A DNA stretch of 64,000 nucleotides from a virus. The stretch lies in UHGV virus genome UHGV-1440165; one strand, 5' to 3'. The position numbers were made by a program, and so were the translations under genes. Of this stretch, positions 1,169 through 62,981 are shown one piece after another (within the stretch, counting starts at the first letter, position 1; each line of letters begins with the position of its first letter). The notes under the pieces are model-generated. The model worked only from the letters and a program-made list of their open reading frames with translations. It did no database searches and was not told where the DNA came from.

Positions 1169-1672
1169 TTGAGAGACTATATCATGATGCTGTTAATGAG
1201 TGTTCCACAGAACAAGATGACCCCTGCAACAGAGGGCAAGAATCACTTCAACATCTACAGTCGGAGCAACACCGAACTCGGTCGCTTTTTGTCGCATTTC
1301 ACTCACCATCCCACAGCCACTTACGAACATGGTGTGTTTAACTCCATGGAGGGCTACTGGTATTGGCTGAAGTACCGGGACGACAACCTGCGTCTGCTCG
1401 ACGGCTACGAGGCCAAGCAGTATGGCCAGGAGTTGGCGGCCACCCGTGTCATCGTCCTGGACCCGTCTACCGAAGAATTCAAGCGAGACATCCTGTTTGC
1501 GACCAGCATGAAACTCCAGACAATGCCAGACCTGCTGAAAATCAGATTGGCATACAGTCGACTTCCCCTGATCCATGCATACGTTCGGAACGGGAAATAC
1601 AGTTTTCAAAACTCTATGGACTTTATCATAGATCACATTAATCGTCTCCGCATACAAGGAACTTTGAAATGA
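1169..1672 (+). CDS. NADAR/YbiA-like (DUF1768-like) protein, putative ADP-ribose-processing enzyme
   Basis: FNIYSRS...LGRFLSHF...PTATYEHGVF...SMEGYWYWLKY resembles the YbiA/NADAR core (FYS..GxFSNF..PTSEHYFQAxK); true start may be an internal Met. Confidence 0.4.
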   Translation: MRDYIMMLLMSVPQNKMTPATEGKNHFNIYSRSNTELGRFLSHFTHHPTATYEHGVFNSMEGYWYWLKYRDDNLRLLDGYEAKQYGQELAATRVIVLDPSTEEFKRDILFATSMKLQTMPDLLKIRLAYSRLPLIHAYVRNGKYSFQNSMDFIIDHINRLRIQGTLK

Positions 1673-4658: not shown

Positions 4659-5991
4659 GATGGTTGCCAAGAGCATTACTGTAACGGACTTTGTCAACAC
4701 GGACCACAAGGAGTTCTCGGTGGTCAACAGCATCCGTCAAATCCCTCAGCTGATTGACAGCCTCAAGCCAAGCCAGCGCAAGATCCTCTTCGCGGCTCTT
4801 GAGTACAACAAGGAGGAGATTGTTGACCGCCTTGGTATGTTCGCCGCCGCCCGCACGAACTACAAGTCTGGTGGCGAGAACATGAGCGGCACTATCGTGA
4901 ACATGGCTCAGGGCTTCCCAGGTACGAACAACATCCCGTACTTCGACCGCGATGGCCAGTTTGGTTCTATCATGGGGCGCGAAGCGTCGTCGGCTCGTTA
5001 TATTTCGGTTGCTGTATCTGATGTTATCCGCAAGATCTTCCGTAAGGAGGATGAGGGTATCTTGGAATACAACTACCTTGGTGAAGAGAAACTGGAACCG
5101 AAGTTCTTCCTGCCCATCCTTCCCATGTTCCTGGTGAATGGCATTAACGGTATCGGCTCCGGTTATGCCACCGACACCCCGTGCCATTGTGTTAAGTCCG
5201 TGCTGAACGCCCTGAGAGCACTTCTCCGTGGCGATAACCCGACGGACTTAAAACCGTACTGGAACGGCTACAAAGGAGAGACAGGCTATACTGAGGAAGG
5301 AAGAGCATACAGTCGCGGCATCTTCCGTCGCGTCAATGCCACGACCCTGCATATCACCGAAGTCCCAGTGGGCTGGTTCGCCAAGACCTATGAGACCAAG
5401 GTGTTGCTGCCTCTGTATAAGGCTGGTATCCTCACTGAGTACGCCAACGACACGACTGAAGACGGCTGGGACATCACCGTTGTGTTCAAGCGGGGCGAGC
5501 TGTCTAAGCTGGATGACGATCAGGTTGAGCAGATGTTCAAGTTGTACTCTGCTAACAAGCCTGTTTGGACAGCCTGGGATGAAGACGGTGTTATCCATCG
5601 CTATTCGGGTTGGCAGGATATGCTGCTGCCGTTCTTCAACTATCGCCTTTCCCGCTATGAAGACCGCCGCCAGTACATGCTGAAGGATATGGCCGACAGG
5701 ATCAGCAAGCTGGGTGACCGGGCAGTGTTCATTGAATGGGCGACGCGTGTTGATCTCCGCCAAAAGATTGATGTGCTGAAGTCTCTGTTCATGCAGGATT
5801 ACCCAGACTTCGGTGGTGACCTTGACGAGTTGTTCAAGATGCCGCTGTCATCAATCACCCTGGATGCTCGTGAGCGGCTGCTCAAGCAGATAGAGAACCT
5901 TGAAGCACAGCACAAGGAATTAAGTAAGAAAGAGGACATTGACCTCTACAACGAAGACCTTGATGACCTTGAAAAGGCTCTTGGTCTGTAA
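4651..5991 (+). CDS. 52: DNA topoisomerase II medium subunit (GyrA-like; T4 gp52)
   Basis: SVVNSIRQIPQLIDSLKPSQRKILFAALE and GyrA-like breakage-reunion region; ORF-track start 4651 is GTG, ATG at 4660 is the likelier start. Confidence 0.9.
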   Translation: MGKMVAKSITVTDFVNTDHKEFSVVNSIRQIPQLIDSLKPSQRKILFAALEYNKEEIVDRLGMFAAARTNYKSGGENMSGTIVNMAQGFPGTNNIPYFDRDGQFGSIMGREASSARYISVAVSDVIRKIFRKEDEGILEYNYLGEEKLEPKFFLPILPMFLVNGINGIGSGYATDTPCHCVKSVLNALRALLRGDNPTDLKPYWNGYKGETGYTEEGRAYSRGIFRRVNATTLHITEVPVGWFAKTYETKVLLPLYKAGILTEYANDTTEDGWDITVVFKRGELSKLDDDQVEQMFKLYSANKPVWTAWDEDGVIHRYSGWQDMLLPFFNYRLSRYEDRRQYMLKDMADRISKLGDRAVFIEWATRVDLRQKIDVLKSLFMQDYPDFGGDLDELFKMPLSSITLDARERLLKQIENLEAQHKELSKKEDIDLYNEDLDDLEKALGL

Positions 5992-5995
5992 CACC

Positions 5996-6013
5996 GGAGG
6001 GGTTCGCCCCTCC
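5996..6013 (+). terminator. GC-rich hairpin after gp52 (weak terminator candidate)
   Basis: ggagggg-ttcg-cccctcc stem-loop; no clear T run. Confidence 0.3.
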
Positions 6014-6033
6014 TCACCTGCGAGGATTGTGCT

Positions 6034-6324
6034 ATGTTCTATCTCCGTACTGCAGCGCCTATCTTGTTCCTTGTGTTCCTCTTTGATTTCCTGGTTCCTC
6101 GCTTCATCAAAGAAGAGGTTGCCTTCGGCCTCTATGGTGAGACAGAAGACCCAGAGGTTGATGAATACTTCCCGATGTGTGCACTGAAAGACGTCGTTGA
6201 GGGTGAGCCGGGGGTTGTAATGGTCGGCACCATGCGTTCTTTCAACTTGTTTGGCTTCGCACTCTTCCCGAAACTGATCGGTGAACTGCGCCCATACGAT
6301 CCCGAAGCCACTGTAGAGGGTTAA
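6034..6324 (+). CDS. Hypothetical small membrane protein
   Basis: 96-aa ORF with hydrophobic N-terminus (AAPILFLVFLFDFLV). Confidence 0.35.
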   Translation: MFYLRTAAPILFLVFLFDFLVPRFIKEEVAFGLYGETEDPEVDEYFPMCALKDVVEGEPGVVMVGTMRSFNLFGFALFPKLIGELRPYDPEATVEG

Positions 6325-6326
6325 TC

Positions 6327-6641
6327 ATGTCACAGCTTCTGAGTCCTAAACTTCTGTCCATGGGTGACTCCCTGTATTTTCATTGTCCTGGGTGCGATAT
6401 GCTTCACCCATACCGCGTGAAGGGATCCCCAGAACAAGGTCCGGTGTGGTCGTGGAACCACAATGTTGTTGAGCCTACGTTCACACCGAGTCTGCTGGTG
6501 AATGCATCTGATCCAGCATCACGTTGCCATCTATTCCTGACCGACGGCAAAATACAATTCCTCGGCGACTGTTTCCACGATCTGAAGAACCAGACAGTGG
6601 ATATGGTCGACATCCCTGAACCTGAAATTTGGATTGAATAG
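6327..6641 (+). CDS. Hypothetical small Cys/His-rich (zinc-binding?) protein
   Basis: HCPGCDMLHP ... SRCHLF ... GDCFHDL cysteine/histidine pattern; 104 aa. Confidence 0.45.
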   Translation: MSQLLSPKLLSMGDSLYFHCPGCDMLHPYRVKGSPEQGPVWSWNHNVVEPTFTPSLLVNASDPASRCHLFLTDGKIQFLGDCFHDLKNQTVDMVDIPEPEIWIE

Positions 6642-6644
6642 ATT

Positions 6645-7055
6645 ATGAAATTACTGGGTTATTTCCGCGAACTCCCAACAGGCTCTGAAGGCAAGTTGTT
6701 CTCACAGGTGAAGGGGAATGACATCGGTGATACGATGGTTCCCTTGTACACCCGTGACCTTCCTGCTGAAGGTGCCTGGGAGCGTCGTGTTGTCGCTGCT
6801 GCCAACAAATATGGTGATGTGATCGTCGTTGCCGACCGCCACCACAGCCGATTCATGAACAGTCAGCTCAAGATCCTGAAAGAGGCTGGCGTCATTAAAT
6901 CCACCCATACCCGCGAACAGGGCTTCATAGACAACCAGGGCAACTTCCTCACTCGTGAAGAGGCTTGCGTCGTAGCCCGTGAAGCCGGACAGATCAACCA
7001 GGTGCGCCTGAAGACAACCCCATTTCACGAACTCTTTTCCGAAGACCTCTATTGA
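6645..7055 (+). CDS. Hypothetical protein
   Basis: 136-aa ORF coupled to the upstream gene. Confidence 0.45.
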   Translation: MKLLGYFRELPTGSEGKLFSQVKGNDIGDTMVPLYTRDLPAEGAWERRVVAAANKYGDVIVVADRHHSRFMNSQLKILKEAGVIKSTHTREQGFIDNQGNFLTREEACVVAREAGQINQVRLKTTPFHELFSEDLY

Positions 7056-7062
7056 AGAAAAA

Positions 7063-7080
7063 GGCGGTATTATTACCGCC
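7063..7080 (+). terminator. Hairpin, candidate terminator
   Basis: ggcggta-ttat-taccgcc stem-loop just after the 6645-7055 stop. Confidence 0.4.
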
Positions 7081-7105
7081 TCGACCCCTTGTTTGGTAAC
7101 AACAA

Positions 7106-7348
7106 ATGAACCCAGAATTTGAAAATCTGTTCGAGCGCTGCTTTGAACCAGGTTCTGTATCCGGTTACATGGACCGCCTTTGCACTGACATTGTAACACG
7201 CCTTGCTGCCAAGGGTATCGTTGTCAACACCATTATTCGCAATGGGAACAACTTTATCTTGCAGATAACCGATTATCGCCACCGCACAGGCATCTTTCAA
7301 GTGTCGTGTGTTGACAACAGCATCATTGAATGGAGACGTTACGCATGA
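7106..7348 (+). CDS. Hypothetical protein
   Basis: 80-aa ORF. Confidence 0.35.
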   Translation: MNPEFENLFERCFEPGSVSGYMDRLCTDIVTRLAAKGIVVNTIIRNGNNFILQITDYRHRTGIFQVSCVDNSIIEWRRYA

Positions 7349-7944
7349 CCACATATGTAATCAACGGCGGCGATTTACTGAAAGCCGCCTGTAGCTTCAA
7401 CCTGATCAACATCTTTGCCCACGGTGCCAACTGCTGGTCTACCATGGGTGCGGGTATCGCCCTACACATCGCCCACAACTTTCCAGCCCTGCGCGAAGCC
7501 GATGCCAACGATCCTCGCGGTCCAGAGCAACGCCTGGGTGGTATGTCCTATGCTTTCGACCACAGCAAAGGTGTCTGGGGCGCGAACCTCTACACTCAGT
7601 TCTATCCAGGTCCGAACGCCCGCATGCCATCTGTCATCAGTTCTGTTCAGATGTTATTCGAGCAGGTGCATGAGATTGTTGAGGCGACCGATGACGAAAC
7701 CGTCTATGTCGGTCTGCCCGCTATCGGCTGTGGCATCGGTGGTCTGAAGCTATTCAGCGTTGTCTGTCAGATCAACAAGGTGGCAGTATCCGTGTTTGAA
7801 GAAACGCGCCGCCGGGTTGTGCCTGTGTTCTACATCCGGGAGGAAGACGGGTTCGATGATGATCTGATGGATCTGTCAGATCTGATTGAAGATGGTATCA
7901 TGATTGTCGAAGATGAGCAAGAAATCATCGACGAGGAGGCGTGA
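7330..7944 (+). CDS. Macro-domain-like protein (putative ADP-ribose binding/hydrolase)
   Basis: INIFAHGANCWSTMGAGIALHIAHNF resembles the macro-domain NAAN...GGG..AI core; acidic C-terminal tail. Confidence 0.45.
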   Translation: METLRMTTYVINGGDLLKAACSFNLINIFAHGANCWSTMGAGIALHIAHNFPALREADANDPRGPEQRLGGMSYAFDHSKGVWGANLYTQFYPGPNARMPSVISSVQMLFEQVHEIVEATDDETVYVGLPAIGCGIGGLKLFSVVCQINKVAVSVFEETRRRVVPVFYIREEDGFDDDLMDLSDLIEDGIMIVEDEQEIIDEEA

Positions 7945-8336
7945 TGCGCAAACCCGTTACCGAGGAGATGCTGGCGAAAGCCGCTCTCCGCCCCAAAGAG
8001 AAGTTTGCATTCTTCCCAGTACGCTTGCATGACGGAAGCTGGATCTGGCTCCAGCCGTATGTTCGTGCTCCTATCGGCCTGTATGCAAACTGCGAGTCCG
8101 ACATTTTCGAATATGCAGCCTTTGCGAGAGGGGAAATCCCTGCTGTAGAAAGGAAGTATACTCTAAAGCAGTATCGAGTTGGCGGTGATTGGGCTGATGA
8201 TGGGGAATACTTTCCACATCGAAACTTCAGAACCTTCGACAACTCATACCAATCCGTGGATTATGCTTCTGAGTTCGGAAGGACTTCACTGCAGATCCTC
8301 TTAGAAAAGGCAGGAGAAATCGATGTACAAGTCTAA
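7941..8336 (+). CDS. Hypothetical protein
   Basis: 131-aa ORF. Confidence 0.4.
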   Translation: MMRKPVTEEMLAKAALRPKEKFAFFPVRLHDGSWIWLQPYVRAPIGLYANCESDIFEYAAFARGEIPAVERKYTLKQYRVGGDWADDGEYFPHRNFRTFDNSYQSVDYASEFGRTSLQILLEKAGEIDVQV

Positions 8337-8955
8337 CTTCCTTGCAGTGGCCGACAGTGAAACCCTGGGGCGCTGGGATGATGCTGTCATGCTGTCATGG
8401 GCGCATACCATCGCAGATCTGACCAAGCGTTATACTCTCCAACAGCTGGTCGAAGAGCGCACGACGTTCATTAAGCTAGACAGCAGAGAACAACTTGAAC
8501 TCGGTCGAGTAAAAGACCAAGGGACGGTTGAATGGTGGTTTGGCACGGGCAAACGCAATCCGTGTGATGCCGCTCGTGCTGTTAGTTTGTTCCCGAGAGA
8601 AGGTGATATCTCTGTCTTCCAGCTGGCTGACGAAATCCGCAAGGGTTGTCATCGTCTTGGGGTGGACCCGCGCTCGGTTGACTGGTGTGATCGTAACTTG
8701 TTCGACCTGCGCAAGGCTCAACACATCATTGAGGTGACGTGCAAGCAGGACTCCAACGAGCCATGGGATTACCACCACACCTTCGACATCGTGAGCTGGC
8801 TGAAGGGCGTTGGGCAGCAGGACCGCTATGCTGGCATCAAGGCATGGGAACTGGAAGGCATGGTCTATCATGATCCTCGTTATGACGCCGCGCTTGACTG
8901 GCTGCGTATTCAGAAGACCATGGAAGATCTGATGGGGCTGGAGGTGAAAGAATGA
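8323..8955 (+). CDS. dexA: DEDDh 3'-5' exonuclease (T4 DexA-like exonuclease A)
   Basis: Exo motif I AVADSETLG, VEWWFGTGKRNP and H-x4-D (HDPRYD) resemble T4 DexA (IIDFETMG ... MEWW). Confidence 0.65.
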   Translation: MYKSNFLAVADSETLGRWDDAVMLSWAHTIADLTKRYTLQQLVEERTTFIKLDSREQLELGRVKDQGTVEWWFGTGKRNPCDAARAVSLFPREGDISVFQLADEIRKGCHRLGVDPRSVDWCDRNLFDLRKAQHIIEVTCKQDSNEPWDYHHTFDIVSWLKGVGQQDRYAGIKAWELEGMVYHDPRYDAALDWLRIQKTMEDLMGLEVKE

Positions 8956-9254
8956 TATTCTTCACAGTTATTGGCGCTATCGTAACAGCTGGGGTGTTCG
9001 CAGCCATATTGGGCTACCTGTACTTCATGTTCCTTCATCCGTTATTTCAGGCGTTCAGTCTCACGAATTGGTACTTGACCTGCCTAAAGGCCGACGGCGG
9101 CGTGAACATGGCCTCTCTTCCTTACTGGCGGCTGGTGGCGCATTACTACACGGTCGGTGGCTGGCCTGGGGAAAGGACATGGAACTCTATCGGTGAGTGG
9201 TATGGAATAGGTCGATGGCGTATATTCCCAGATGATGAAGACAAAGCCCCGTGA
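8952..9254 (+). CDS. Membrane protein, hypothetical
   Basis: Two hydrophobic helices at the N-terminus; 100 aa. Confidence 0.45.
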   Translation: MIFFTVIGAIVTAGVFAAILGYLYFMFLHPLFQAFSLTNWYLTCLKADGGVNMASLPYWRLVAHYYTVGGWPGERTWNSIGEWYGIGRWRIFPDDEDKAP

Positions 9255-9263
9255 GGGGCTTTT
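9245..9263 (+). terminator. Rho-independent terminator
   Basis: agcccc-gtga-ggggct hairpin followed by TTTT. Confidence 0.6.
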
Positions 9264-9317
9264 CTATATCCGGGATAGAGTATCATTGGTTCACCAACGA
9301 ATCCTCGGGAAACTGCT

Positions 9318-9530
9318 ATGACAATCGCAAGAAGTTACAGAAAGAACTTCAACATCGAAGGGATTGAGTTCTATCACCATTATGCTCAGGACGCCCATGG
9401 CACTGTATGTAACACATACATGCTTGACGGTCGTCCTGTGAGTTCAGACGAGTTCCATCGTGTTCTGCGTGAGTCTACAGAAGAATCCCTTCCGTACATC
9501 ATCAACGCCAACGGATTGATTAAACCATGA
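9318..9530 (+). CDS. Hypothetical protein (first gene of coupled operon)
   Basis: 70-aa ORF, stop overlaps next start. Confidence 0.4.
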   Translation: MTIARSYRKNFNIEGIEFYHHYAQDAHGTVCNTYMLDGRPVSSDEFHRVLRESTEESLPYIINANGLIKP

Positions 9531-9823
9531 CAGACAAAGAGATCATTCAGGTGTGCATCAGGCTGAAGACTTTGAAGCCTCTCTTGCAAGCGCTGCGGTT
9601 CAATGCCATTAAGTTTGAGAAACTGCCTCGCACTGCCGCAACGTACTTTGCCATGAAGTCGGTCGGCGGTGCTATCTTCTTCGAGCACGACATTTACTTC
9701 TACACAAAACTGGATGGCAAAGATTTAGATGATATGGTATTTGCCAACGACTCCGGCGACACCATGAAAACGAAAGTTGAAAATGAGCTTCGCCGTATCA
9801 ATGACGGCCTGAGAGGGATGTAA
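9527..9823 (+). CDS. Hypothetical protein
   Basis: 98-aa ORF, translationally coupled. Confidence 0.4.
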   Translation: MTDKEIIQVCIRLKTLKPLLQALRFNAIKFEKLPRTAATYFAMKSVGGAIFFEHDIYFYTKLDGKDLDDMVFANDSGDTMKTKVENELRRINDGLRGM

Positions 9824-10518
9824 TGATCAACGTATCAATAAACGACCGTGATTTCGTTCGCGACGTCCTGACAAACAACAAAGACCCTCTTGCGTACAAT
9901 GGCAAGAAGGTCACCCTGTTTTGGTCCGGCGGCGTGGACAGCACATACATGCTCTTCTGGCTGCTGGCCCATGGGTACGAAGTACACACGATCTATTGCG
10001 AACTGGAGAACAACTTCTTCAAGGTGAAGCGCGAGAACTGGGCACGCAATAAGATCAGGGAATGGGTGACCGCCAATTCACCGAGGTTGAACAATCATTG
10101 GCATCACAGGAAAGAGCCGATCAGCAGAATAAAAATCCCTTCAGGCGATTTCAGGGCATGCCTGGCGCAAGCCCCTTTGTGGTTGGTGAACACGCAATTT
10201 GTAGGCGGAGAGTTCAGCAGAGAGTTGCCAAGAACTTATGTGATGGCATACGTCAACGGTGACGACGCTCTCCACTGGATCCCGGCCTTCAACAAGATCG
10301 TGGAGGGCTATAACATGTTGGCCAAAGACGGGCATGAGATCACCGTTCTCTTCCCTCTCGCCAGCATGAAGAAGACATGGTTCTACGAAGCCCTGTCGCC
10401 AATCTACGGGCTGATGACCTGGTGTGAATATCATGTCCTGAAGAAGAACTGCAAATGTCCCGCCTGCGTTCGTCATCGTCATGAGCTGTCTGTATTCGAG
10501 CAACAGATCTCTAAGTGA
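9823..10518 (+). CDS. queC: QueC-like PP-loop ATPase (7-cyano-7-deazaguanine synthase family)
   Basis: PP-loop SGGVDST, 231 aa, C-terminal Cys cluster CKCPAC (QueC zinc site is C-x-C-x2-C); resembles E. coli QueC N-terminus (VFSGGQDST). Confidence 0.6.
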   Translation: MINVSINDRDFVRDVLTNNKDPLAYNGKKVTLFWSGGVDSTYMLFWLLAHGYEVHTIYCELENNFFKVKRENWARNKIREWVTANSPRLNNHWHHRKEPISRIKIPSGDFRACLAQAPLWLVNTQFVGGEFSRELPRTYVMAYVNGDDALHWIPAFNKIVEGYNMLAKDGHEITVLFPLASMKKTWFYEALSPIYGLMTWCEYHVLKKNCKCPACVRHRHELSVFEQQISK

Positions 10519-10525
10519 GGGTAGC

Positions 10526-10867
10526 ATGAAACCGTCTGTTGTGGTGAATGACATCACTGTGTTGATAAACCTTGTCAAGGATGTGTTCCCACAACAGGTG
10601 GATGCTGAGTATGTGGGGAAGAACGGGAAGTGCTATCAGGTTGCTCTGCTGTTGAAGCACGTGTACCCTGAAGCGGAGATCCATTACAGTCAGATTGAAG
10701 GTCATGTGTATACTCTGATTGATGGGCATTACTACGACATCGACGGCATCCACTTCAGTGTCCCACCAGACACTTGTTTGCTGGAACACAACAGAGGCCA
10801 CAAACCGCATCGCTGGCATAAGGGGTTTGTGAACGTACCGATTTTAGAATGGCTGAGGAAACCATAA
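10526..10867 (+). CDS. Hypothetical His-rich protein
   Basis: ATG 10526 with SD GAGGG upstream; HxxH-rich C-terminus (HNRGHKPHRWH). Confidence 0.4.
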   Translation: MKPSVVVNDITVLINLVKDVFPQQVDAEYVGKNGKCYQVALLLKHVYPEAEIHYSQIEGHVYTLIDGHYYDIDGIHFSVPPDTCLLEHNRGHKPHRWHKGFVNVPILEWLRKP

Positions 10868-32852: not shown

Positions 32853-33418
32853 TTACGTTCTCCGTAGAATTTAACGAACGGTGCCCAACCATCAAATGGA
32901 TTGAGGAATTCGTAGTCCACTTTCATCTGGTCAATGAAAGCCTCTATATCGTCCTCTATGATACCAGCGCGGTCGGCCTTTGAAATGCGGGTGATAGGGC
33001 ATTTCGTACTCAGCGCCCATTCATATTCCTGAGGGGTGCGCAGATCGCTCACGATATAATGGACGTCAGGGTTCTGCTCTACCAGAGGAAGCTGGAAGCG
33101 CTTGAAGAATGCCAGGAACAGATCAGGCTGTACGTAACGCAAGCCCGTATCGCTGCCTAGATGAAGCCAGATCTGCCGTGGGGTTAAGCCCTTGGGGTTA
33201 TCAGGGTGGACGTAAGGAACGTCCTTCACGGCATCCTCCACCTCCGCTGGAAGCCATGGATAGATGAAGTTGGCAACCCGGCGCAGTTCGTCTGAGAACG
33301 AAAGGCGCTGGATATCCATATCGCCCTGTAGATGGTGATAGCTGATGAGGGACTCCAAACAGAAGTCCTTACCGGAGCGCTTGCGCCCCGTAAAGAATTC
33401 AAGGTTAGGATACATCAT
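32849..33418 (-). CDS. Deoxynucleoside monophosphate kinase-like P-loop protein (T4 gp1-like)
   Basis: P-loop GRKRSGKD resembles T4 gp1 GVKRSGKD. Confidence 0.5.
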   Translation of the reverse strand: MMYPNLEFFTGRKRSGKDFCLESLISYHHLQGDMDIQRLSFSDELRRVANFIYPWLPAEVEDAVKDVPYVHPDNPKGLTPRQIWLHLGSDTGLRYVQPDLFLAFFKRFQLPLVEQNPDVHYIVSDLRTPQEYEWALSTKCPITRISKADRAGIIEDDIEAFIDQMKVDYEFLNPFDGWAPFVKFYGERK

Positions 33419-34464
33419 TCTTTATCACCCAGGAACTTAGGATCAACAATCTTGCGGTCAACCGGGGAATGGGTGAGCGCGACGTTCAGGGACTGGTCAC
33501 TGACGTTATCCAGATTGATGAGCTTACCACTCAGCTTGCACCACAGGCAGTATGCCATATCCAGAATTAACCCGGCATCGGCTCCGTGTTCGTGTAGAGT
33601 TTTCATAACGTCTAACCATGATGAACCTTTGGAAATCACTTCAACGATATCGGCGAACATGACTCGGATACGTGTTTGATTCCCAGGGACACCAAACAAA
33701 ATAGGGGAGAAGTAAGAACCCGTGTGGAATACACTGGTGGCAGGAGTAATTTTACCCAGCTGCTTCTGGCTGACTTCATTGTTGTAATAATGAAGGTTGT
33801 TAGAGAAGAGGCGGTACAGCCCAACTTCCACATTCAGCACCCTAGCGACGATCTCTTGGAGGATGGAGAATTCAATGAAATTGATTGAACTCATGCCCCA
33901 CAGAACATCCTGAGATCGGTTGATGACTGTTAGGTTCAGGCGACCATCCACGATAGAGAACAAAAGGGCTAGGTTACACACCATATCCTTGGTCTTTGGT
34001 TCCCCGCTTTCGTTGGACCAGATCAGACCAGAGTCCGAGTCAAGAGCAGGGTCATAGATGGTGAGGTATGCTTGGCGACTGTTTGGATTTTCTTTCAAGC
34101 GGCGAATCACACTGTCAATCTGACCATAGGCGTACAGGCGCGGTCCATAAGCAGCTCGCCATGTAGTGCCGTTATCAGAGAAGTTGACAGCGCGAGGTAA
34201 TACACGGGAAAGGAACTCAACGTCATTGCGCCCAGCAAGCACCCAGAAAGTCTCACCAATGGCAGCAACAGCAGAAGAGTTGCGCCCTTCCACGGATAAC
34301 CAACGGTCGCGTGGGTTCTGCACGGTGATCGTCACACCGTCAAGGAAGCGGGTGCCGTCAGTGTTGATCTCCGCGTTACCAGGATCAGATTCAATCCCGT
34401 GCTCACGGATAGCCAAGACAGCCTGTTTCAGCATGTCATTGTTGTTTATTGCTTTGATTTCCAT
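33415..34464 (-). CDS. Thymidylate synthase family enzyme (ThyA / pyrimidine hydroxymethylase) with C-terminal extension
   Basis: TS-fold motifs: ETFWVLAGRND, candidate nucleophile in MVCNL, RSQDVLWGMSSIN aligns to TS RSCDVFLGLPFN with Asn at the specificity position; 349 aa. Confidence 0.7.
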   Translation of the reverse strand: MEIKAINNNDMLKQAVLAIREHGIESDPGNAEINTDGTRFLDGVTITVQNPRDRWLSVEGRNSSAVAAIGETFWVLAGRNDVEFLSRVLPRAVNFSDNGTTWRAAYGPRLYAYGQIDSVIRRLKENPNSRQAYLTIYDPALDSDSGLIWSNESGEPKTKDMVCNLALLFSIVDGRLNLTVINRSQDVLWGMSSINFIEFSILQEIVARVLNVEVGLYRLFSNNLHYYNNEVSQKQLGKITPATSVFHTGSYFSPILFGVPGNQTRIRVMFADIVEVISKGSSWLDVMKTLHEHGADAGLILDMAYCLWCKLSGKLINLDNVSDQSLNVALTHSPVDRKIVDPKFLGDKE

Positions 34465-35126
34465 TAATCGATACTCCCAAAATCACGACAGAGGAATGCC
34501 ATCACAGCCTGGTCTACTGTTAGACCGTGAGACTTCATCATACCTGCAGCCACCGTAGGGAACAAGCCCTTATGGCGCTGGCGGTGGTCTTGAACGCGCT
34601 CCCACTTCTCGACCACCAGGCTTTCATTGAAGTCCGCGCCGCCGTTGCGTGATTTAACACGGGCGATGCAGGTTTCAAGAGGCGTGTCCATGAAGAGCAC
34701 AACCAGTTCGCGCGGTGGGCGCGTCAGGCGAGGGATCCAGGAACTCAGCAGAGTTGAAGGAATGATGCCTTCGAAGATCACATCGTATCCCAGATACTCT
34801 GGCTGATCAGCGATGCTCAGGGCGAAGAGCATTTGTTCAGTATCCTTCAGGGAATCAACTCCCTTGGACTTCGACTTGTCATATTTGCCGATGCAGACCA
34901 CATTGAAAGAAGGGCAGACGGTCAGCATAATCTTTCCGTTGTGGGTCACGACATATGCCTGAGGATCCCTCTCCGCCAGCTGGGAAGGCACGGTAGATTT
35001 ACCGCTACCATTCGAGCCTTTGACGTAATAGAGTTGCCCTCGTGCTGGGTATATGCCCTTGACGACAGGCGGCTTAAAGAATGTGTGGACGGGGCGCTTC
35101 AACAGCCCCTTCAGGGAATAGGACAT
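34464..35126 (-). CDS. P-loop kinase (nucleotide or polynucleotide kinase-like)
   Basis: Walker A GSNGSGKST; ATG 35126 with GGAG SD; ORF-track start is a TTG extension. Confidence 0.5.
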   Translation of the reverse strand: MSYSLKGLLKRPVHTFFKPPVVKGIYPARGQLYYVKGSNGSGKSTVPSQLAERDPQAYVVTHNGKIMLTVCPSFNVVCIGKYDKSKSKGVDSLKDTEQMLFALSIADQPEYLGYDVIFEGIIPSTLLSSWIPRLTRPPRELVVLFMDTPLETCIARVKSRNGGADFNESLVVEKWERVQDHRQRHKGLFPTVAAGMMKSHGLTVDQAVMAFLCRDFGSID

Positions 35127-35201
35127 AGACTGCTCCAATAAACAAAAGGAGCTGCTATTATAGCAGCCCCTTCATCTATTGAACAGCTTCTGAACTTAAA
35201 T

Positions 35202-62386: not shown

Positions 62387-62671
62387 TCATTCGTAGATGA
62401 GGTGGTAGGATTCCTCGATACACTCCAGCCAGCCATAGACGAACTCCATCGGGTCATCCCAGGCCGTATTGGTCGCGACGGTGAAGTTGCCGTCCAGGAT
62501 CTGCATATCGTGGTACTTGTTGAAAGCGAGCACAGCGTCAACCACAATCAGGCCGCCTTGCTCAAGATAACGATTCGGATTGACCGTCACCTGATAATGC
62601 GGGTTCCGGCGGTTCCATATCTCCACAGCAATGTCACAGGATTCCTGAATTTCATCTTTGTTTTCTGACAT
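62387..62671 (-). CDS. Hypothetical protein
   Basis: 94-aa acidic ORF. Confidence 0.45.
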   Translation of the reverse strand: MSENKDEIQESCDIAVEIWNRRNPHYQVTVNPNRYLEQGGLIVVDAVLAFNKYHDMQILDGNFTVATNTAWDDPMEFVYGWLECIEESYHLIYE

Positions 62672-62981
62672 ATGTTTGTCTCAGGTGTTCAGTAAAGGAT
62701 TTACCCAGCTTGCGGAATAGTTTAATACGCCCGATGACTTTGACGTAAACATCTCCGTGACAGGGGTGCGGCTTACACCAGCACCCCAGGATCTTCCCAT
62801 CAAGCTCAAGGAGTTCATCCTCGGTGATATCCCCTTCAATCAGGCGCACATACAGATCGTCCTCAAACAACTCTATGCAGTTGCCCCGCCCGTGGTCTTT
62901 GACCTCGAATGGGTTCCCCCATTTACCGGGACGACCGATGTAGATGTCGTATGGCTCCTTCTTGAAGTGGACGACTTTCAT
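62652..62981 (-). CDS. DUF4326-like protein
   Basis: YDIYIGRPGKWGNPF ... GKILGCWCKPHPCHG matches the DUF4326 signature as recalled. Confidence 0.5.
   Translation of the reverse strand: MKVVHFKKEPYDIYIGRPGKWGNPFEVKDHGRGNCIELFEDDLYVRLIEGDITEDELLELDGKILGCWCKPHPCHGDVYVKVIGRIKLFRKLGKSFTEHLRQTYVRKQR

Follow-up and report, generated by a model that had tools for sequence, protein, structure and literature searches.

Macrodomains are encoded by ∼41% of myoviruses (PMC9503650), and for phage T4 a role in resistance to the host system DarTG2 has been reported: of the T4 genes, tk.4 alone proved necessary on a host with DarTG2, as confirmed by a clean knockout, and its product was renamed AdfM (anti-DarT factor Macrodomain) because the knockout sensitises T4 to DarTG2 (bioRxiv 10.1101/2025.11.20.689424). 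The name AdfM was given independently to gp104 of the chimallivirus PhiKZ, which removes DarT2-made thymidine-linked ADP-ribose from DNA in vitro, protects against DarTG2 and is inactive as the N23A mutant (PMC13309987, 2026). Here we describe a macrodomain gene at 7345–7944 on the plus strand of a 64,000-nucleotide stretch of UHGV virus genome UHGV-1440165; this whole stretch is hereafter called the window, and the product of the gene the window protein. There is very little doubt, as to both fold and family, that the window protein is a macrodomain of the Tk.4/AdfM family, and we think it probable, with some reservation, that it strips ADP-ribose from phage DNA to defeat host DarTG2. The function of the Tk.4 family was already reported in 2025–2026, and the novelty of the identification is limited accordingly; the distinctive new feature is an acidic C-terminal module, the protein being otherwise one more member of its family.

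Cellular macrodomains provide the further points of comparison. DarG, the DarTG2 antitoxin, has a C-terminal domain that is described as blocking DarT by single-stranded DNA (ssDNA) mimicry. SCO6735 of Streptomyces coelicolor carries Gln85 where DarG and TARG1 have their catalytic Lys, and its Q85A mutant no longer hydrolyses thymidine-linked ADP-ribose on DNA; the enzyme exceeds both DarG and TARG1 in processivity and serves as an antitoxin that protects against DarT (PMC9411070). Its Gln is needed for the activity on DNA specifically, protein substrates being processed by a different mechanism, and the catalytically dead Q85A protein still inhibits DarT through interaction (PMC9411070).

Fold and family of the window protein

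A first-pass annotation, made from the sequence alone, had placed a macro-domain-like protein at 7330–7944, and the ORF list does contain a plus-strand open reading frame (ORF) with these limits (204 codons), including the peptide that had been quoted from it (INIFAHGANCWSTMGAGIALHIAHNF; 7405–7482, residues 21–46). The ORF thus stands, but its start at 7330, that of the longest ORF, does not: the probable true start is ATG 7345, because this codon forms an ATGA overlap with the stop of the upstream gene (7106–7348), lies 9 nt downstream of a Shine-Dalgarno-like GGAG read at 7332–7335 (plus strand, within the end of the upstream gene), and yields the 199-aa product (MTTYVI...) that is called identically in near-identical and more distant orthologues.

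The quoted peptide had been said to resemble the ADP-ribose-binding loop of macrodomains, and it aligns to NTVNCVGVMGKGIA of DarG and HCISEDCRMGAGIA of TARG1, which form macrodomain loop 1 (ADP-ribose and phosphate binding). It contains H26-G-A-N29-C and the glycine-rich M34-G-A-G-I-A39; the second glycine-rich stretch, loop 2 (P125-A-I-G-C-G-I-G-G133, plus strand, 7717–7743; diphosphate binding), likewise aligns to DarG and TARG1 as P125-x-I-G-C-G-I-G-G133. Loop 2 is the only stretch that was matched directly by the Pfam Macro model (PF01661), with 16.1 bits against a cut-off of 22 bits (E 0.011), and a single-sequence search of the PDB was similarly marginal (E 0.013). A family profile built from 64 homologues was needed to reach significant PDB sequence matches. 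With this profile, the best match was the DarG macrodomain of T. aquaticus (5m31, E 6.5e-17), and others were that of M. tuberculosis (E 7.5e-17), human TARG1 (E 1.3e-15), SCO6735 (5e3b, E 3.5e-15), BT1257 (E 3.6e-15) and yeast Poa1p (E 4.8e-14). Two DarG models also matched, each over its N-terminal part only: NCBIfam DarG (E 6.7e-8, 32.2 bits against a cut-off of 250; profile positions 6–134 of 338) and PADLOC DarG (E 2.1e-7, 28.7 bits; positions 6–132 of 329). The profile search that had been proposed as a check bears out the macrodomain assignment, with PF01661 itself below threshold and both the related profiles and the family profile significant. The sub-threshold score is a sensitivity limit of the Pfam model and not evidence against macrodomain membership; homologues pass the same cut-off, T4 Tk.4 with 27.7 bits, and many distant homologues carry a precomputed PF01661 match.

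Structure prediction agreed with the profile evidence. The AlphaFold model of the window protein, computed on the 64-homologue alignment, had a mean predicted local distance difference test score (pLDDT) of 96.8 and a predicted template modelling score (pTM) of 0.92, and shows the three-layer alpha/beta/alpha arrangement of the macro fold rather than a non-macro fold. Foldseek searches against solved structures returned TARG1 (4j5s, E 3.3e-9), M. tuberculosis DarG (5m3i, E 1.7e-8) and Poa1p (E 3.3e-8), all with probability 1.00, a value also reached with viral nsP3 macrodomains. Among predicted viral proteins (BFVD), the best matches were phage macrodomain proteins, including the 'tk.4' product of Acinetobacter phage 133. 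A second alignment, made with MAFFT and including distant references, put the last core strand of the references on a strand of the C-terminal extension of the window protein; the 64-homologue alignment and the AlphaFold secondary structure were preferred in this region.

Assignment to the Tk.4 family was based on a match to PHROG 335 (E 1.7e-65), with orthologues annotated 'Tk.4 protein', and on direct comparison with T4 Tk.4 (BLASTP, 34% identity over 112 residues, E 3e-16). The two proteins have in common the motifs AHGxNC..TMGxGxA, NLYTQFxPGPN and PxIGxGIG, and both contain the complete family signature of H26, N29, N81-L-Y-T-Q85, G89 and P125; among the 64 aligned homologues, H26, G27, N29, G37, N81, Y83, T84, Q85, G89 and P125 are invariant. 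T4 Tk.4 is further like the window protein in having Gln in place of the DarG Lys and in being a stand-alone gene without an adjacent toxin. It differs in passing the Pfam Macro cut-off, in ending at the last core strand (155 aa) without the 34-residue acidic helix-strand-helix of the window protein, and in belonging to another phage family with another genomic neighbourhood.

The family is widespread among phages. Relatives were found by tblastn in 2,656 phage records, including those of T-even (tk.4), rV5-like, FelixO1-like and PAK_P1-like phages, and in 251 of these records the match spans 80% or more of the query, a number that fits a gene conserved across Ackermannviridae. Two distant family members were checked and both lie on phage contigs, one of them flanked by T4-type rnl1, asiA and rIIB. 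The other is found on a 12-kb phage-like contig beside a GIY-YIG homing endonuclease and ∼2 kb upstream of a Tad2-like (anti-Thoeris) gene, an arrangement that hints at an anti-defence gene cluster.

The name AdfM in fact covers two lineages, one represented by T4 Tk.4 (a Gln variant, distantly DarG-like) and the other by PhiKZ gp104 (a Lys variant, strongly DarG-like), which are barely alignable with each other and have almost no detectable similarity. PADLOC DarG scores were 132.9 bits for gp104, 36 for T4 Tk.4 and 28.7 for the window protein. Like the window protein, gp104 is a stand-alone phage macrodomain, yet it keeps the Lys (K78), is 25% identical to the window protein, and matches PADLOC DarG with E 4.4e-39 compared to 2.1e-7. 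Judged by sequence, the window protein belongs with T4 Tk.4 and not with gp104. Equating it with PhiKZ AdfM was considered and rejected, gp104 being a separate, Lys-containing and truly DarG-like lineage.

Active site and acidic C-terminal extension

In every alignment Gln85 of the window protein, within the N81-L-Y-T-Q85 motif (7585–7599, plus strand), stands where DarG (K80), TARG1 (K84) and PhiKZ AdfM (K78) have their catalytic Lys. His26, Asn29 and Gln85 are present in all 64 family members and in T4 Tk.4, and Gly132 stands at the position of TARG1 Asp125. An hhalign comparison of the family profile with SCO6735 (probability 97.8%) paired Gln85 with Gln85, His26 with His24, Gly27 with Val25 and Asn29 with Asn27. 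Given the precedent of SCO6735, the loss of Lys in the phage family is no argument against DNA de-ADP-ribosylation.

The window protein resembles at these positions the ALC1-like macrodomains with a catalytic Gln, namely SCO6735 (5e3b) and Bacteroides BT1257 (2fg1/2afc), which share the Gln, the His and Asn of HxxN, and the GCG(I/L)(G/A)GG of loop 2. BT1257, a homologue of SCO6735, is also the best PDB relative of T4 Tk.4 by sequence. The invariant Gln groups the phage Tk.4 family mechanistically with SCO6735, within the lysine-independent branch of the ALC1-like class, and not with DarG. SCO6735 nevertheless differs from the window protein in being basic (pI ∼9.7), only ∼24% identical and encoded by a bacterial chromosomal gene.

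DarG (5m31, 5m3i) has the same fold and loop 1/loop 2 architecture, with its Asn22 corresponding to Asn29; unlike DarG, the window protein has Gln for Lys80, lacks the C-terminal DarT-binding domain and has no neighbouring darT. Filing it as a DarG-like enzyme was rejected on account of these three missing features. Poa1p (6lfq–6lfu) resembles the window protein in its comparable fold and profile scores, in its HxxNC motif (His23, Asn26), in a Thr before the Lys-equivalent site and in the lack of a catalytic Lys. It differs in having Ser for the invariant Gln, a large insertion before loop 2 and a small-molecule substrate, as well as Phe152 where the window protein has Gly132. Of the mutant sites named in the titles of Poa1p PDB entries 6lfs, 6lft and 6lfu, His23 is kept (His26), Ser30 is conservatively replaced (Thr33) and Phe152 is lost (Gly132).

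Beyond the macrodomain core, the window protein carries a C-terminal extension (EEDGFDDDLMDLSDLIEDGIMIVEDEQEIIDEEA; 7840–7941, plus strand, residues 166–199) whose 34 residues comprise 17 Asp/Glu and no Lys or Arg, for a net charge of −17. AlphaFold predicts it to be folded (pLDDT 94–97), with helix 171–178, strand 185–188 and helix 191–198, and in BFVD the fold was matched over its whole length, together with the tail, by a protein of Serratia phage phiMAM1 (TM score 0.86). The closest homologues, including proteins of named Ackermannviridae phages, have extensions of 30–42 residues with net charges of −6 to −17, and in a neighbouring clade, to which Erwinia phage Bue1 belongs, the length is 17–28 residues; the extension is missing from T4 Tk.4 and from most other members. 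A function of the extension as a DNA mimic or docking module is a reasonable conjecture, because the C-terminal domain of DarG is described as mimicking ssDNA and inactive SCO6735 still inhibits DarT. A more specific version, in which the module would be a nucleic-acid mimic that blocks DarT2, or would dock onto the replisome or ssDNA-binding proteins, and so would recreate the two-pronged strategy of DarG convergently within 199 residues, seems to us rather unlikely. Either way the extension is a small, testable structural novelty in an otherwise ordinary identification.

Proposed function and alternatives

In the reading we favour, a host toxin of the DarT2 type would ADP-ribosylate thymidines in single-stranded phage DNA during infection, and the window protein would act as an orphan-antitoxin-like ADP-ribosylglycohydrolase that binds ADP-ribose via loop 1 (HGANC...MGAGIA) and loop 2 (PAIGCGIGG) and hydrolyses the thymidine–ribose bond, allowing replication to continue. 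Catalysis would be of the SCO6735 type, with Gln85 together with His26 and Asn29 positioning the distal ribose and a water molecule, and not by the Lys mechanism of DarG and TARG1. A role in countering host ADP-ribosylating defences had also been suggested in the first-pass annotation, and that suggestion is strengthened by the sensitivity of the T4 knockout to DarTG2 (bioRxiv 10.1101/2025.11.20.689424).

A number of points weigh against this proposal. The enzymatic activity, the specificity for DNA thymidine and the anti-DarTG2 role are all transferred from the genetics of T4 Tk.4 and the biochemistry of SCO6735. For T4 Tk.4 itself the evidence is genetic only, with removal of ADP-ribose likely rather than demonstrated (bioRxiv 10.1101/2025.11.20.689424), and at an identity of only 34% over 112 residues its function may not transfer. 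The window protein lacks the Lys on which catalysis by DarG and TARG1 depends, and the residues with which SCO6735 positions DNA are not conserved (Lys34 corresponds to Ala36, and the mobile loop HGMKTGSKG with Lys89 and Lys93 corresponds to PGPNAR). The window protein is strongly acidic (pI 4.35, net charge −19) compared to the basic DarG, TARG1 and SCO6735; its core, however, has a net charge of −2, the same as T4 Tk.4 (−2) and less negative than that of the biochemically active PhiKZ AdfM (−6). Lastly, similarity to Poa1p is about equal to that to DarG in both sequence and fold, and the substrate class is therefore not assignable from similarity alone. In a literature search, no experimental link between Ackermannviridae, the family of the window phage, and DarTG was found.

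The prominence of Poa1p among the best matches (profile E 4.8e-14, Foldseek E 3.3e-8) is one point in favour of another substrate class, that of small soluble ADP-ribose derivatives hydrolysed in the manner of Poa1p or MacroD/YmdB, such as ADP-ribose-1''-phosphate, O-acetyl-ADP-ribose or breakdown products of immune signals; the protein would then clear away or recycle such products, perhaps in concert with the DUF4326 and NADAR-fold proteins encoded elsewhere in the window. His26 and Asn29 match His23 and Asn26 of the Poa1p HxxNC motif, Poa1p too is without the Lys, and T4 Tk.4 was long annotated 'phosphatase, A1pp motif'; moreover, many phage Macro, NADAR and DUF4326 domains have been argued to target soluble ADP-ribose derivatives (Iyer et al. 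2022, PMC9503650). We nonetheless consider such a role unlikely, given that the only experimental phenotype of the family is protection of T4 from the DNA-modifying DarTG2, that Phe152 of Poa1p is replaced by Gly132 and its Ser by the invariant Gln of the family, and that SCO6735 cannot de-ADP-ribosylate DNA without this Gln (PMC9411070). The same residue bears on the idea that the protein erases ADP-ribose from protein or RNA, either reversing the action of host ADP-ribosyltransferase (ART) toxins on proteins or mRNA (e.g. CmdT-type) or tuning ADP-ribosylation by transferases encoded by the phage. Macrodomains are generally promiscuous, the close structural relatives TARG1 and SCO6735 also act on glutamate-linked ADP-ribose of proteins, and defences that ADP-ribosylate RNA exist (PMC11618068); but SCO6735 needs its Gln for DNA in particular, with another mechanism reported for proteins, and no genetic link of Tk.4-family proteins to such systems was found in the literature searched, so that we regard this role as improbable.

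The protein might also be mainly non-catalytic, binding ADP-ribose, ADP-ribosylated DNA or DarT directly as a stoichiometric inhibitor, with the acidic module as a DNA mimic. The missing canonical Lys and the predicted folded extension of net charge −17 are consistent with this, as are the blocking of DarT by the DarG C-terminal domain and the residual inhibition by dead SCO6735 Q85A (PMC9411070). Every residue of the SCO6735-type mechanism is, however, invariant in the 64 homologues, which argues for an enzyme. T4 Tk.4 works without such an extension, and neither sequence nor profiles relate the extension to the DarG C-terminal domain, the NCBIfam and PADLOC DarG matches being confined to positions 6–134 and 6–132; we therefore find a mainly non-catalytic function very improbable. 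If the preferred function as an eraser of ADP-ribose from DNA holds, the Tk.4 family (∼2,650 phage records) would constitute a second, very large natural sequence set for lysine-independent DNA de-ADP-ribosylation.

Genomic context of the macrodomain gene

The window derives from an Ackermannviridae phage. A 3.3-kb neighbourhood of the macrodomain gene is 88–94% identical to Ackermannviridae phages, among them Yersinia phage CAU_YEP3, Enterobacter phage EspM4VN, Shigella phage Ag3 and many Salmonella, Escherichia and Klebsiella phages. The Ackermannviridae include the ViI, CBA120 and Ag3-like phages, which are widely considered for the biocontrol of Salmonella, E. coli and Klebsiella.

Two other proteins of the window that the first-pass annotation had set beside the macrodomain were recovered. 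The NADAR-like protein (1214–1672, plus strand; longest ORF from 1169) is recognisable at the level of structure only: there was no match in Pfam, in PADLOC, in a single-sequence PDB search or with a 23-sequence profile against the PDB, but the AlphaFold model (pLDDT 94.3) had NADAR structures as its top three Foldseek matches, YbiA 2b3w (E 2.2e-4, probability 1.00), 8bau and 8bat. The gene is conserved in Ackermannviridae, was found in 577 phage records, and has far tblastn relatives annotated 'YbiA' or 'N-glycosidase'. DarTG1 is neutralised by phage NADAR proteins, among them AdfN of T4 (gene 30.3), which makes the protein at 1214–1672, on the strength of its predicted fold, a candidate AdfN-like anti-DarTG1 factor; it is therefore plausible that this phage resembles T4 in encoding erasers for both DarT chemistries. 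The DUF4326 protein (62652–62981, minus strand; Pfam E 1.4e-23, PHROG 464) is encoded ∼55 kb from the macrodomain gene. DUF4326 is predicted to process phosphates on ADP-ribose derivatives and occurs fused to Macro, NADAR and SLOG domains (Iyer et al. 2022, PMC9503650). Should the proposed functions hold, Ackermannviridae would carry a ready-made counter to DarTG2 and probably also, via the NADAR-fold protein, to DarTG1, and both would bear on the predicted host range of these phages on DarTG-carrying strains.

Thymidine chemistry is represented elsewhere in the window by a 5-hydroxymethyldeoxyuridine (5-hmdU) DNA kinase and an adjoining thymidylate-synthase-like gene (33415–35135, minus strand; PF18748 E 1.8e-108 and E 8.1e-16, respectively), near which a dUTPase_2 protein and a phage ACT-like domain protein are encoded. 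This pair of genes is a hallmark of thymidine hypermodification in ViI-like phages, and the set at 33415–35135 is that expected for hypermodification of thymidine in the phage DNA. With the kinase encoded, thymidine is already a focus of DNA modification in this phage, which is relevant because DarT2 targets thymidine; the macrodomain may therefore act on ADP-ribose attached to either unmodified or modified thymidine.

Locally, the macrodomain gene is one of a series of DNA-metabolism and accessory genes that share its orientation. The gene directly upstream (7106–7348, plus strand) encodes an 80-aa DUF7234 protein (Pfam E 1.9e-43; PHROG 5593), and the ATGA stop/start overlap suggests that it is translationally coupled to the macrodomain gene. 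Downstream come a 131-aa gene of PHROG 5613 (7941–8336, plus strand), which overlaps the stop codon of the macrodomain gene (GTGATG), and then dexA (8323–8955). In Ag3 the orthologue, annotated 'Tk.4 protein', is flanked by a small hypothetical gene and dexA, and the topoisomerase II genes lie upstream of it. The gene at 7941–8336 is present between the macrodomain gene and dexA in the window and in CAU_YEP3 and absent there in Ag3, which looks like a small accessory-gene indel within the phage family. No DarT-like Pfam match was found in the eight flanking ORFs, the neighbours of the macrodomain gene being the DUF7234, PHROG 5613 and DexA genes.

Farther upstream lie a homologue of T4 Arn.3 (6645–7055, plus strand; PHROG 839 E 2.1e-50, and so annotated in Ag3), for which no Pfam family was matched, and a small Cys/His-rich protein (6327–6641, plus strand; Pfam DUF6527 E 5.9e-13, PHROG 3362). 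The latter had been described as preceding the macrodomain gene; the protein is real, yet it is not directly in front, with 6645–7055 and 7106–7348 intervening. In some database records it is labelled 'anaerobic dehydrogenase', which is a misannotation. A scan of 5900–9400 for promoters and terminators gave counts no higher than in shuffled controls. One 9-bp GC-rich hairpin (GAGGCGGTAAT/ATTACCGCCTT), with a T-run on the minus strand, is found at 7061–7082 in the 50-nt gap between 6645–7055 and 7106–7348, in a scan that was overall no richer than the shuffled controls. Beyond dexA, the plus-strand gene at 9823–10518 encodes a QueC-like PP-loop ATPase with a weak Pfam QueC match (E 8.2e-7) confined to the N-terminal motif; its counterpart in CAU_YEP3 is annotated 'QueC-like queuosine biosynthesis protein', and it is followed by a gene for a YunG-like protein (10481–10867, plus strand; E 2.9e-43).

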